DNA of 63,993 nt, the filler included, from Octopus bimaculoides (lineage: Eukaryota): NCBI RefSeq assembly GCF_001194135.2. It is 11 parts of 10 records of this genome, joined end to end, with 100 filler letters (N's around TTAATTAATTAA, not from the genome) between each part and the next. Parts side by side here need not be neighbours in the genome. Positions count along the whole stretch, not along the records: positions 32,548 to 42,710 come from NC_068985.1; positions 42,811 to 51,058 come from NC_068981.1; 9 more parts are not named here. The stretch is one strand, 5' to 3'. The notes beneath the pieces were generated by a model. That model did not search any database, was not told the DNA's origin, and worked only from the letters and a program-made list of their open reading frames with translations. This document shows, piece after piece, positions 34,627 through 48,208 of this stretch (positions are counted from its first letter, which is position 1; each line of letters starts with the position of its first letter). A program made the position numbers and the translations under genes.

Positions 34627-34682
34627 TTAGGTCTGTGCAGAGTTGTCTCTCTTCGATAATTCCCATTGATAATGGCTAGAAG
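34627..34682 (-). CDS. Putative distal alternative last exon (F') of the micro-exon gene
   Basis: tttctag|CT TCT AGC CAT TAT CAA TGG GAA TTA TCG AAG AGA GAC... = (T)SSHYQWELSKRDNSAQT*. Paralogous to 35465-35517; weak pyrimidine tract. Confidence 0.35.
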
Positions 34683-35215
34683 CTAGAAACCTCCATGTCT
34701 GAGAATCTGACAGGTGACAGCACTGGACAGATATGGTGTTTTTACACCTTTTTTTTTACCATAACAGAATTTTTTCTCCCTGGTAACTGCCATGAATTTG
34801 CCTTTTGTGTTTGAAATATGTTACAAATATAAATTTAGCTAATGCCTAAATTTAGCTTATGCTTGGTGCAGATATTACAGTAATACACACACACACACAC
34901 ACATTGTATGATACAAACAAAAGTCGATACTTTTTCAAACGCAGTTTGTTGACAACTTTTTTTGCCTTGTAAAGGTATTTACCCATTATTTCTGTTGTTC
35001 AAACGGCAATACTGCATTCGAAACACATCAACTTCTTGTTTGTATCATAGAATACTCAGTTTAATGCTTCTAATAAAAACAAACAAGAGTTTGTTTATAT
35101 TTATATGTACACACACAAGATTTAGATTTAGATTCAAAAATGAATATGGTACTTATGTTAAGGCACCAGAATATAGTATGGTATTATCCAAAAACCATTC
35201 TAAAAGCAAGGTGAT

Positions 35216-35696
35216 CAAAAAATCAAAATAAGCAACACGGATTTTAAAGATGATTGCAGTACACACGTTTCATGCTACTCCATTTATTTAAGTAATGCAA
35301 GCATTACATTAAATGCAATATGTAGAGCAATCTTCAGCTGCACAAGAATGTAGAAAATTACAGTAGAATAGACGTATTATAATTGTGGCAACATTTAAAA
35401 TCCAAGTGGGAAGAAGAATACATAAAAATCCATCTTGACATAGCCAAGGCTAGCTGTGTTAAAGTCATGGCCTGGTTAGGTCTCTCTTTGATATTTCCCA
35501 TTGATAATGGCTAGAAGCTAGAAATTATAATATAATATGTCTATTCTACTGTAATTTTCTGCATTCTTGTGCATCTAAAGATTGCTCTACATATTGCATT
35601 TAATGTAATGCTCGCATTACTTAAATAAATGGAGTAGCATGAAACGTGCGTACTGCAATCATCTTTAAAATCCGTGTTGCTCATTTTGATTTTTTG
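35216..35696. repeat. ~170-bp inverted repeat pair enclosing a 138-bp loop
   Basis: 35216-35384 is the reverse complement of 35523-35696, with about 7 substitutions and one 5-nt indel by manual alignment. Confidence 0.92.
35465..35517 (-). CDS. Putative proximal last exon (F) of the micro-exon gene
   Basis: ataatttctag|CT TCT AGC CAT TAT CAA TGG GAA ATA TCA AAG AGA GAC CTA ACC AGG CCA TGA = (T)SSHYQWEISKRDLTRP*. Phase 1 fits the upstream exon. Confidence 0.45.
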
Positions 35697-35941
35697 TACA
35701 CACACAAGTATAGATATATATGTGTACATATGTATGTGTGTACATGTATATACATAAATATATGTATTTTCTCAAACTTGTTCTCACTCCTTTTAATATT
35801 ATTTTAAAATCTTTGAAGAATTATAGACAGAGGTTCTATACATTTTTCAACATGTAAACTTTTGTGACATCAATTTTATAATGAAATATGCGTAACATAA
35901 AATTAAATTATACCAAACTTTTTCATTCTTCTCTTTCAACA

Positions 35942-35999
<58 letters not shown>

Positions 36000-36122
36000 T
36001 GTTCATGTGTGTACGTGTGTGTACGTGCATGTGTTTGGGTGTGTGTAGTGTACATATTACTATTATATATATATTAATTGTATATATATAATTCTGAAAG
36101 TAATGGCATTAATTATACTTAC

Positions 36123-36161
36123 TGCTTGGCTTGGATGAAATACCATAAGCACGTTCCACAT
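36123..36161 (-). CDS. 39-nt symmetric phase-1 micro-exon (E)
   Basis: tttttcattttcttttttaaag|AT GTG GAA CGT GCT TAT GGT ATT TCA TCC AAG CCA AGC A|GTAAGTATAAT = (N)VERAYGISSKPS. Confidence 0.7.
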
Positions 36162-36972
36162 CTTTAAAAAAGAAAATGAAAAATTATTTTTTGTTTGTAT
36201 GTGTGAGTGTGGTGCATGATATTTGAAATGGACTACTTCTAAGATGCATTGAAAAATATCTATAATACAAGTATTATAATAAACTATATGGATATAAATG
36301 ATGCTGAAAAATCAAATAAAAATATTTGACATATATAGGAGTACATAATAAATTTAGCTATCAATGCAAATGTGATAAATCAAGAAAAAAAGCATTTTCT
36401 CTTTCACTTTTTCATATTCAGCATTAAAAGTGGATAGATGATCAGTCCTCTTGTTGTGGTTTACACCCAAGTCATATATATGATCAAATGCATTTCCTCC
36501 ATTGCATTGAAACACTGAAGTAAGATCTGGACATCCAATCCATTGAATCCTGTTGATCCATCCAATTCATATCACCATAGAAAGTAGAAAGCAGAAACAG
36601 AATGATGTTATATTATATGGGTAGAGGAGCAGACATGGCTGTGCGGTTAAGAAGCCTGCTTTGCAACCATGTGGTTTGAGGTTCAGTCCCACGGAGTGGC
36701 ACCATGTTTCTTTATTTTTCACATTTTGGCTTCTTTTCAGATGGCAAGTTACCAATTATTACATATTACATGTTTTGAAACAGTCTGTGTAAATAATCAA
36801 TATGTTTACTTAACCCAGAAATGTGTGGTAAATAAAATCAACTGATTGACTATTAATTCAATTCTGAATTTGATTTGCAAGTATTTCAAGAACTTTCTCC
36901 ACCCACCAAATTGCTGGCCTTGTGCCAAATATTGAAACCAATACAAAATTATTTGGTGTTGATTATACTTAC

Positions 36973-45283: not shown

Positions 45284-45714
45284 AGGCAGCGAGCTGGCAG
45301 AATCGTTAGCACGCCGGGCGAAATGCTTAGCGGTAGTTCGTCTGTCTTTACGTTCGGAGTTCAAAATCCGCCGAGGTTGACTTTGACTTTCATCTTTTCG
45401 GGATCGATTAAATAAATACCAGTTACGCACTAGGGTCGATATAATCGACTTAATCTGTTTGCCTGTCCTTGTTTGTCCCCTCTGTGTGTAGCCCCTTGTG
45501 GGCAGTAAAGAAATAAGAAACGTTAGCACGCCGGGCGAAATGCTTAGCGGTATTTCGTCTGTCTTTGCGTTCTGAGTTCAAAATCCGCGGAGGTCGACTT
45601 TGCCTTTCATCCTTTCGGGATCGATAAATTAAGTACCAGTTGCGTACTTAGGTCGATCTAATCGACTGGCTTCCTCCCGCCAAAATTTCGGGCCTTGTGC
45701 CTAGAGTAGAAAAG
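45284..45714 (+). mobile_element. Dimeric SINE-B inserted as one unit with 18-bp TSD
   Basis: TSD ATTTATCTAAAGTGTTCA at 45266-45283 and 45715-45732. The two monomers have different tails. Confidence 0.88.
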
Positions 45715-46779
45715 ATTTATCTAAAGTGTTCACGCAAAGAAGATGGTTTCCGACAAAAATTCAGAGCTCCATCGCTGAAATATTATTTTAGCGTCAATGT
45801 CATGTCTCAATGGGCGGTTTTATCGTGCTGAAATTTTTAGCAGCAACTGACCACATACGCAATGTCTTACACAAAAACGTGACATAATCAACATTTTCGG
45901 TTGCATCTTGGGGTTCCAAGGACTTCACTGTTTCCTCTATTAAAACTTTTAAAATTTAACAAAGTAAAGTTTAATATAAAAACATTTAACTGGTTTTATA
46001 TATAACTTGACACGAACACAAGCATTAGTACATAGGCAGATCTGTTCAGTTTGGCTCACAGATTTTTTAATTAATTTTTTTTAACTAAACAGTTTGAAAC
46101 TTTGTATACTGGTGTAATTTCTCACGCAGAACACAGTTTACTTTGAACATTTTTGACAAAATTTCGTATTTTAGAAGTTATTTCGTGTTAAAGTTGTCGT
46201 ATTTTGGGTAATTCTAACCGATCAACGACGTGTATTCAGTTGAAGATAGCTATTGCTGTTTGCGATAGTAATCGAAGAGGAACAACTGCAGTGAACCACT
46301 ATGATCCTTTAAGTAATTGAGTTGCAACAGGCCCTACATTATTCAGCAATAACCGTTATAAGAAAAGAAAGATAAAGAAAACGAAGAAAATAAACTTTTG
46401 TTTCATATATATATACTCTAGTTCCCTGATATCCGTCTTGATACCGACAGAATTTTAAACAGAATGAGTAAATATGTTCATAGCTGTTATTATATGTTCT
46501 TGCTTTTATTATTAAAGTTAATTCATCCTGCTGAAAGATTAAATACACGAACGACTATCCTATTGCAAGATCCGGTACTGGGGTGTTATTGATAGGAACC
46601 TGATAAGTTATTGCTCTTCCTATGTCTCATTAATAATAGATACAAGGAAACATACTGAATCTGTATGTGGTGTGGTTTCACATATGTAATATAGTTGATG
46701 GAATCTTCAATTACGCCATGTAAATTAGAAGGCAAAACTATCTCTCAGGATATTTAAAATATGAATGTTTCTAATTTAG

Positions 46780-48068
46780 GCAGAGCGCTAGCAAATTTTG
46801 AGGGGAAGGGTTTAGTCAATTACAATATTCTCTCTCAGCGCTTGACTGGTACATTATTTTATCGACTTTGGCGGGATAAAAGGTAAAATTTATGGCTGGG
46901 ATTTGAACTCAGAAATGTAAAGGGCTGAAATAAATACCACAAGGCACATTTTTCGGACTCTCTAACGATTCTGACAAACCACAGCTTTGCATTGTATATC
47001 AGTTTCCTCATTCTGCCAATCTCCCAAAATATAAAACATGGAAATACAAGACTATAATGCTGCTGGTTAGGAATAGTTACAATAAGGCTGCGGGAAAGTA
47101 CTTCAAACAGTAGAGCCTTACATTTGTAATATAGTGAGTTGAAAAACTCGATTAACTGAGATTTTCTATACTGAGATTTTCTATGTTTTGTTGAAAGTGA
47201 GTTAGTTACAAGATCGAAAGCATTTTGTCTAACGTGTTAACGATTCCACCAACTCGTCGCCTTCTGCTCTACGATAATAATGGTAACAATTTTTGACACA
47301 AGGCCAGCAATTTCAGGGGATGGGAAAGATGATTATATTGACCCCAGCGTTCAGCTGGTACTTATTTTATCGACCTCGAAAGGATGGAAAGCAAAGTGGA
47401 CCTTCGCGGCAGAATTTGAACACAGTATATGAAGGCAAACGAAATGTCGCTAAGTATTTTGCTTGGCGTGCTAACGATTCTGCCAGCTCGACACCTGCCC
47501 AATAATAATAATGATGTCAAATTTTGGTACAAGGCCCGTAGGTTTTGGGGAGGGGCTAAGTCGATTACATCGACCCCAGTACTCAATTGGTACTTATTTT
47601 ATTGACCCTGAAAGGATGAGAGGCAAAATCGACCTCGGCGGAATTTGAACCCAGATCGCAAAGACGGATGAAATGCCGCTAAGAGTTTTGCCCGGCGTGC
47701 TAACGATTCTGCTAGCTTGCCACCTTCTACTCTACAATAATAATGATTTCTAATTTAGGCTCAAAGGTAGTCAGAACATAAAAACAGACGAAATACCTCT
47801 AAGCATTTCGCCCGGTGTGCTAACGATTGTTTTCTACTCTAGGCACAAGGCCCGAAATTTTGAGGGAGGGGCCAGTCGATTAGATCGACTCCATTACGTA
47901 ACTGGTACTTAATTTNNNNNNNNNNNNNNNNNNNNNNNNNNNNNNNNNNNNNNNNNNNNNNNNNCAAAGTCGACCTCGGCGGAATTTGAACTCAGAACGT
48001 AAAAACGGACGAAATACCACTAAGCATTTCGCCCGGCGTGCTAACGATTTTGCCAGCTCGCCGCCTTA
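46780..48068 (-). mobile_element. Cluster of about 5 SINE-B copies and fragments, minus strand
   Basis: Copies at ~46780-46990, 47293-47500, 47520-47725, 47750-47825 and 47835-48068. Confidence 0.8.
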
Positions 48069-48137
48069 ATGGAGAAAAATAATAAGTGAAGAGAGTGAGA
48101 GGTTGGGAGGAACAGACAGACAGACAAACAGACAGGC

Positions 48138-48173
<36 letters not shown>

Positions 48174-48177
48174 TTAC

Positions 48178-48208
48178 GCACACAAAGGAAAAGCGGAAGG
48201 GAAATAAT
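48178..48208 (-). CDS. Candidate 31-nt hydrophobic micro-exon (B), phase 0 to 1
   Basis: ctgtataatttcag|ATT ATT TCC CTT CCG CTT TTC CTT TGT GTG C|GTAAGT = IISLPLFLCV. Joins exon C to give IISLPLFLCVLAVQVNFS. Confidence 0.45.

Follow-up and report, generated by a model that had tools for sequence, protein, structure and literature searches.

In the parts of the sources used here, schistosome micro-exon genes (MEGs) draw about half of their coding sequence from short exons that are multiples of three in length and share one phase. They encode a signal peptide, show residue-changing differences in the mature part and comprise 10–20 micro-exons, mostly of 15 bp; the same parts describe them as restricted to platyhelminths (PMC4350168, bioRxiv 10.1101/2023.06.21.545858). 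Genes of scorpion venom peptides and cone-snail hormone-like peptides are described, in the portions consulted, as beginning with one or more signal exons, after which come a phase-1 intron and short exons for the mature peptide (PMC5308243, PMC10501145). An intron of phase 1 close to the signal-peptide cut is described there as common in secretory proteins (PMC5308243).

The window (the whole stretch of 63,993 nt of Octopus bimaculoides DNA that was analysed) contains three short candidate exons, C, D and E, and two upstream candidates, A and B:

54879–54900, minus strand: candidate exon A (absent from the preliminary description), a short first exon whose start codon abuts a phase-0 donor
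48178–48208, minus strand: candidate exon B, a hydrophobic exon of 31 nt (phase 0 to 1) that would form the h-region of the predicted signal peptide
37272–37295, minus strand: putative micro-exon C, 24 nt, phase 1-1; acceptor 6.6, donor 0.9
36973–37014, minus strand: putative micro-exon D, 42 nt, phase 1-1, acidic, two Tyr
36123–36161, minus strand: putative micro-exon E of 39 nt, in phase 1-1, duplicated in tandem with D

The candidate chain resembles schistosome MEGs in several respects. In the longest model, 105 of ~190 coding nt would come from C, D and E, each a multiple of three in phase 1-1. Hydropathy and the -3/-1 rule would fit a signal peptide, read across two artificial joins. The candidate gene was missed by ORF callers, and the reads over D point to residue-changing differences in the mature part. 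Unlike schistosome MEGs, it has three symmetric exons, and the minus strand yielded no others at the same cut-offs, although gaps could hide more. Compared with the variant pool of schistosome MEGs, D was covered and E uncovered in RNA runs X3 and X8. The parallel drawn in the preliminary description holds for the design (short symmetric exons, probable signal peptide) and not for membership (three exons versus 10–20).

Like the scorpion venom and cone-snail peptide genes, the candidate gene would have signal exons, then a phase-1 intron and short mature exons; unlike them, it has no cysteine scaffold and yielded no homologue with single-exon queries, and nothing links it to venom. Sulfakinin/CCK-type peptides are short secreted chains in which acidic residues stand before a Tyr. 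The Tyr of D likewise follows acidic residues in a short, predicted secreted chain, and its sulfation is a prediction; however, an amidation Gly and an RFamide-type end are absent, and KR occurs only in the doubtful last exon. The YxxI word after acidic residues is also shared with the motif of MEGF10/PEAR1/Draper-type receptor tails, but no EGF or other ectodomain exon or TM-length segment was found in the window, and the ITAM spacing is absent.

If the chain holds, it would be an unannotated small secreted peptide gene, invisible to ORF-based tracks and spread across three assembly pieces, and a sign of micro-exon-built secreted peptides outside flatworms. It is considered a promising lead rather than a new system, because RNA supports one exon (D), the proposed function is a guess based on a motif, and small secreted proteins commonly have short phase-1 exons. 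The literature found on octopus or cephalopod micro-exons and mollusc secreted micro-exon genes described no such gene, with most subscription papers and all supplements outside the scope.

Exon sites and chance expectation

The preliminary description had proposed five minus-strand exons (B, C, D, E and a last exon F). All five were present at the proposed coordinates, each preceded by AG, and B to E end at GT. Joined in frame, they were open up to a stop within F (62 codons, without a Met). The lengths and phases of C, D and E and the flanks common to D and E were confirmed as well. The sites, the phases and the open frame of that proposal stood; none of its splice junctions was seen in RNA, mapped over 36095–37085.

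Sites were scored with a simple home-made weight matrix, and the thresholds were set post hoc from the weakest of C, D and E. The acceptors of the three exons scored 4.8–6.6. C had the strongest acceptor of the set and a weak donor, and a second acceptor was found 6 nt inside it, at 37289. Besides this inner acceptor, C, D and E were the only symmetric candidates on the minus strand at those thresholds (54,405 called bases); on the plus strand, there was one. Three such sites within 1.5 kb were found in none of 200 shuffles of the piece, and the clustering exceeds chance. Open frames alone mean little, as 52–69% of random stretches with these exon lengths are open.

Their alignment marks D and E as tandem duplicates of each other. 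Their contexts aligned at 69% over 126 nt with a score of 58 (2000 random windows scored 32 at most), and the exons themselves were 59% identical (23/39). A D-like word at 34566 was considered as a fourth repeat and rejected, its score of 26 being equal to that of five background matches.

RNA coverage of D and E

RNA mapping covered 36095–37085, i.e. the region of D and E, with four runs and an unstranded library. The likeness cut-off of 88 admitted repeat reads at 36634–36695 and 36894–36943. D was covered edge to edge by ~20 reads of X8 (roughly 12 RPKM) and by one X3 contig that ended exactly at the donor of D. The depth was 0 in the flanking intron bins (37047–37080 and 36843–36876). These data support that D behaves like a transcribed exon. 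E had a depth of 0 in all four runs, including X3 and X8; ~19 reads were expected at full inclusion. No D–E joint was among the joints listed from the mapping of this region, and the acceptor at 36303, upstream of E, was without reads. X1 and X2 (organism A) showed zero depth on both exons; their tables were near-identical, and they are perhaps one data set.

The reads differed from D of the window at 37003, 36995 and 36996, and two of the three differences alter the residue. As each X8 read had at least four differences from the window, they may derive from a paralogue; another allele may also be represented. A-to-I editing was ruled out as the cause, since the changes were G-to-A and C-to-A on the coding strand. 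The X3 contig extended 4 letters beyond the acceptor of D, compared with 1 predicted from C of the window (assumed scoring), meaning that the upstream partner of D may not be C. Word shares of 0.03–0.05 with possible RNA runs were not counted as evidence, with no firm RNA run among the matches listed. An exact scan of JGI metagenomes with 22 nt of D gave 0 matches.

Candidate first and last exons

Two artificial joins bear on the upstream part of the chain:

42711–42810, no strand: artificial join of 100 nt separating the B piece from the C piece
51059–51158, no strand: artificial join of 100 nt separating the A piece from the B piece

The whole stretch has 10 artificial joins. The one between B and C had been pointed out in the preliminary description and was located as listed; the A–B link spans another. 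The ordinary N gaps (n=23) were 10 to 995 long, none reaching 1000, and it would fit that the artificial joins represent longer gaps within one scaffold. A continuation of the ABCA-like gene of the first piece was looked for in the next 58 kb, and none was visible (147 of 168 plus-strand ORFs had no Pfam domain, a weak test). Accordingly, the pieces need not adjoin in the genome.

Of 37 donors that come after an open ATG upstream of B, that of A was the best (score 4.8). A was the only site in the window, on either strand, with ATG directly followed by GT(A/G)AG, on the same strand as B, in the phase that B requires and two pieces upstream of C. An ATG adjoining a donor is not rare by itself. 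B (acceptor 2.7, donor 1.0) was the most hydrophobic of eight same-type candidates in the window, two of which had a mean hydropathy above 2, and one of seven candidates with a phase-0 start that lie between A and C. By chance alone, an upstream hydrophobic exon like B is not rare.

Together with B and C, candidate A would complete an N-terminus that resembles a signal peptide; the links cross the two joins. The combined chain would have 14 non-polar residues, with a small residue at -3 and -1 for a cut after residue 13. K and R are absent from the first 30 residues, six acidic residues lie in 20–33, and a phase-1 intron falls near the predicted cut. The hydrophobic exon B had been read as part of either a signal peptide or a TM segment. 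The former is more coherent with A included; the latter does not fit, because the hydrophobic run is ~14 residues long and no basic residue occurs in the first 30. The best 19-residue hydropathy of the B chain was 1.74, and a helix of ~20 residues with a basic flank was absent from this chain.

Downstream of E, several candidate last exons and an inverted repeat were found; a second fold-back lies upstream of C:

35465–35517, minus strand: F, last exon of the preliminary description, 53 nt, with KR, in the loop of the inverted repeat
34609–34689, minus strand: F', second copy of F; acceptors -7.7 and -1.4, none usable
35283–35337, minus strand: F2, alternative last exon; acceptor 35337, stop 35309, AATAAA 35288
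35056–35069, minus strand: F3, alternative last exon; acceptor 35069, stop after 4 codons
35211–35701, no strand: inverted repeat, arms 35211–35381 and 35531–35701, 171 nt, 95%, 149-nt loop
37461–37640, no strand: second fold-back with arms of 84 nt (98%), situated 165 nt upstream of C

The acceptor of F scored 1.1, which is weak compared with C to E, and its pyrimidine tract is paired inside the hairpin stem. The inverted repeat folds at -285 kcal/mol (z -30.8); an Rfam search that included the second fold-back gave no match. F and F' were identical at 96% over 45 nt and at 92% over 26 nt, with a 14-nt difference, and the conserved block begins at the acceptor and contains KR. The acceptor of F2 (5.0) was the best among 208 AG sites downstream of E on the piece and is situated within the second arm of the inverted repeat; that of F3 (4.9) lies outside the repeat. 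Cys after residue 14 was absent with F, F' or F3, and two were found with F2. There was one KR with F or F' and none with F2 or F3, and the residue preceding KR was Ser, not the Gly of amidation. The exact product of ~63 aa was not borne out: E was absent in both runs showing D, F has the weakest of three nearby last-exon acceptors, and the dibasic site of the preliminary description exists only with F or its copy.

No homologue had been recognised before, and none was found here with single-exon queries, known peptide families included, in searches that were weak. The frame of D gave three candidates among proteins, none at E 10 or better, its 14 real residues being too few for the index. A HMMER match (P0002, E 1.3e-09) was rejected; it was a bacterial Big_5 repeat protein, with eight weak matches summed that lay partly upstream of any acceptor.

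Small secreted peptide gene and alternative explanations

With middling confidence, we regard C, D and E as genuine short exons that most likely belong to a gene for a small secreted peptide, with modules that can be skipped. Together with A and B, they would form one minus-strand gene with a secreted, acidic, Tyr-bearing product of ~37–63 aa. A would give the Met, and B and the start of C would give a signal peptide cut after residue 13, so that the product would enter the secretory pathway. D and E probably arose through tandem exon duplication. As both are multiples of three in the same phase, either could be skipped without a frameshift, and with E unused in the two runs showing D, the gene likely yields length variants. 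From its motif, the Tyr of D among acidic residues is predicted to be sulfated in the Golgi, and the peptide to act outside the cell in binding or signalling. F2 or F3 is a likelier last exon than F, which would make KR processing unlikely. In this form, the hidden micro-exon gene of the preliminary description is supported by the transcribed-like behaviour of D and by the candidate A; the exact 63-aa product is not.

Unlikely, but the best of the alternatives, is a larger single-pass receptor for which C, D, E and a last exon encode the cytoplasmic tail, with ectodomain and TM exons on another piece or in a gap, the acidic-then-YxxI Tyr motif of D as a phosphotyrosine docking site, and A and B due to other genes or to chance. 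This would fit the artificial joins, which the ABCA-like gene does not cross, the mismatch of the X3 overhang with C as the upstream partner (assumed scoring) and a YATI word, presumably one of MEGF10/PEAR1-type tails. However, no TM-length exon with a basic stop-transfer run was found in 37296–54878 outside transposons, and no ectodomain exon was among the candidates in this span, which holds N gaps and two joins. The ITIM and ITAM spacings were absent (the first Tyr has Asp at -2, and a second YxxL/I is missing at 6–8 residues). No candidate among proteins of 75–2000 aa had three words in common with the F' frame, a weak negative from a single genomic frame, and the literature found on cephalopod receptor tails gave nothing relevant and did not bear out the YATI word.

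Less probable still is that the window carries a gene-family duplicate that is partial or decaying. The expressed D-type exon would then belong to a paralogous locus, with E, F and F' as relics of local duplications and a fold-back rearrangement. The reads differ from D at two listed and at least two further places each, compared with a best DNA match sharing 0.69 of words, and E is without reads. The likeness of F and F' (92–96%) is about that of the inverted-repeat arms (95%), fitting one rearrangement event, and Mariner, Tc1-type and LINE fragments occupy the 5 kb above C. Nevertheless, C, D and E keep strong acceptors, GT donors, lengths in multiples of three and one open phase despite the drift of D and E to 59%, which suggests long selection. 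Organism B, the source of the D reads, may be no more than a sister species, or a population that is polymorphic.

Taking the secreted peptide gene further, it seems quite improbable that a cephalopod-type genome independently built a MEG-like family of fast-evolving, small secreted Tyr/acid peptides, with duplicated phase-1 micro-exons mixed by skipping and a last exon chosen via the 171-bp RNA hairpin, itself possibly an A-to-I editing target. Very improbable is the exact B-C-D-E-F prohormone with a KR cut releasing a sulfated neuropeptide: the frame is open through F, and the block shared with F' starts at the acceptor and includes KR, but E was unseen despite the reads expected at full inclusion, the acceptor of F is weak and stem-paired, Gly is absent before KR, and the F/F' alignment found no candidate among proteins of 10–74 aa.

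In candidate exon A, the words at 54895 and 54884 are ETS-like and YY1-like.

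A candidate peptide gene and its micro-exons

The locus is a plausible small secreted peptide gene without annotation. The gene would run A-B-C-D-(E)-last exon, a reading to which we give an even chance. Its candidate exons are:

54879-54900, minus strand: A, candidate start-codon exon
48208-48178, minus strand: B
37295-37272, minus strand: C
37014-36973, minus strand: D
36161-36123, minus strand: E
35517-35465, minus strand: F, a candidate last exon

B to F had been placed by the preliminary description. All five sites were borne out, with AG/GT ends at each place, and joined together they would leave 62 open codons, with no Met. 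Scored with our own simple splice matrix, the acceptors of C, D and E reached 6.6, 4.8 and 6.2, and the donors 0.9, 3.6 and 3.6. The 54,405 called bases were scanned for symmetric sites of 15-60 nt, with thresholds set post hoc to the scores of C, D and E. At these thresholds C, D and E were the sole minus-strand sites, and the plus strand held one. Three such sites inside 1.5 kb occurred in none of 200 shuffles of the piece carrying C to F.

With their flanks, D and E are tandem duplicates of each other, 69% alike across 126 nt (alignment score 58, maximum in 2000 random windows 32). They share 23 of 39 exon letters, and all 11 letters from the donor onward. We judge the short exons to be real. 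A second in-frame acceptor of C lies 6 nt from the first (37295 and 37289, minus strand), a possible two-residue variant.

The predicted pre-peptide would enter the secretory pathway. The remaining mature chain would be acidic, 25-50 residues long and without a cysteine scaffold. The Tyr of D, amid acidic residues, is a predicted sulfation site that would serve binding, and skipping of the duplicated 3n exons may give length variants. Schistosome micro-exon genes are built from 10-20 short symmetric exons, encode a signal peptide and yield many splice variants; they have been described as platyhelminth-restricted (PMC4350168; bioRxiv 10.1101/2023.06.21.545858). The octopus locus has the same design on a smaller scale; it is not a member of that group.

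The 5' end and the order of the pieces

No open ATG was found ahead of any of 10 donors on B's own piece. On the next piece upstream, the ATG at 54881 abuts a strong donor. Of 37 donors, it has the highest score (4.8) of those that follow an open ATG. It is the window's only ATG directly followed by GT(A/G)AG, both strands counted, and words resembling ETS and YY1 promoter motifs lie immediately ahead of it. The donor of A is in phase 0, matching B's need. Translated A+B+C shows 14 non-polar residues and, following residue 13, a -3/-1 site; an acidic stretch comes next. Because its best 19-residue hydropathy is just 1.74, this N-terminus reads as a predicted signal peptide rather than a TM helix. 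The window held eight B-like candidates of the same type, two of them hydrophobic; a hydrophobic upstream exon of this kind is not rare by chance alone. The preliminary description had alternatively proposed the TM and YxxI-bearing tail of a receptor; we consider a receptor tail unlikely.

The link from A to C crosses pieces, two of which are:

42811-51058: piece carrying B
32548-42710: piece carrying C to F

The AT-rich animal DNA of the window, octopod in appearance, abounds in microsatellites and short repeats. Between its 11 pieces (1-11 kb each) stand ten 100-nt spacers, all identical and with stops in every frame, which may replace longer gaps or mark scaffold ends. That the pieces are true neighbours is favoured by the 23 ordinary N gaps (10 to 995 N, 8 above 600), none of which reaches 1000, as if the spacer replaced longer ones. 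It is disfavoured by two exons of an ABCA-like transporter (3786-5340, plus strand; weak Pfam match to PF12698, E 0.0019) with no further exons visible over the next 58 kb in motif scans or in Pfam searches, insensitive to single exons, of 147 of 168 plus-strand ORFs. We put the likelihood of the A-B-C link slightly over even.

RNA coverage of D and E

Reads from four runs were aligned to 36095-37085 only. X8 is raw RNA of organism B from an unstranded library (12.9 million reads sampled, roughly 6% of the run). Its depth, 19.3 across 36979-37012 inside D, was partial in the two bins that contain the exon's ends and fell to 0 in 37047-37080 and 36843-36876 on either side; repeat reads occupied the bins between 36877 and 36944. 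In the contig run X3, one contig (depth 6.3) aligned from D's donor at 36973 to 37018, four letters beyond D's acceptor, with ends derived from the depth and from_end columns. These coverage edges suggest a spliced exon; no splice joints at D were found among the matches listed. X1 and X2 covered neither D nor E.

E had depth 0 in all four runs, including the two that covered D. Had E been fully included, some 19 reads should have covered it, or 5 with inclusion in a quarter of transcripts. The aligner discards some reads silently, yet D reads survived and most should carry at least 30 letters of the adjoining exon. In these transcripts E is therefore either skipped, absent or more than 12% diverged.

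All 20 X8 reads over D differ from the window at 37003; 15 of them also do so at 36995, and 5 at position 36996. The residue changes with two of these three differences, and no read has fewer than two further, unlisted ones. The reads derive from a diverged allele, from a sister species or from a paralogue. The window's C predicts a one-letter X3 overhang (match +1, mismatch -2, scoring judged from loose ends) and four were observed, evidence against C being the exon joined to D in X3. Four DNA-type runs from four organisms shared 0.36-0.69 of the words of 34560-37090. A decaying duplicate would agree with the zero depth of E; we think this improbable.

The 3' end, relatives and neighbouring elements

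An inverted repeat (171-nt arms, 95%; fold energy -285 kcal/mol) encloses F in its 149-nt loop. The acceptor of F scores 1.1, with the pyrimidine tract inside the stem. A near-copy of F, F' (34609-34689), is 14 letters longer and has no usable acceptor. Among 208 AG sites downstream of E, the top acceptors would open alternative last exons:

35337, minus strand: acceptor of F2, score 5.0; stop, then AATAAA at 35288; within the second arm of the inverted repeat
35069, minus strand: acceptor of F3, score 4.9; outside the inverted repeat

Depending on the last exon, the predicted product has 37 to 64 aa. A dibasic KR is present with F or F' only. The KR prohormone ending in F, as first described, is very improbable.

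Two near-perfect fold-backs (37461-37640 and 35211-35701) lie within 2.5 kb, flanking the micro-exons on either side, with no other copies in the window. They may derive from a MITE or from a local inversion.

Protein searches, a weak test with 14-17 real residues, found no relatives. Single-frame queries returned either no candidate at all or no match reaching E 10. The sole HMMER match over 1.84 billion representatives, a bacterial Big_5 repeat protein, was rejected as false. The literature searched gave no account of a cephalopod gene of this kind, which may be listed in a supplement as an unnamed transcript.

Other features of the window were:

38669-39569, plus strand: decayed Tc1/Tc3-type transposase (Pfam HTH_Tnp_Tc3_2, DDE_3)
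39949-40986, plus strand: decayed mariner-type transposase (Pfam HTH_48, Transposase_1)
42352-42710, plus strand: LINE-like fragment abutting the B/C join (endonuclease match)
42811-43239, minus strand: presumably a second LINE-like fragment, on the opposite strand and abutting the same join, without Pfam match
15727-15854, 57077-57195 and 62987-63035, plus strand: isolated exon-like sites that score well for splicing, without assigned gene
about 59780-59932: CCCTAA repeats, telomere-like but degenerate, close to a piece end
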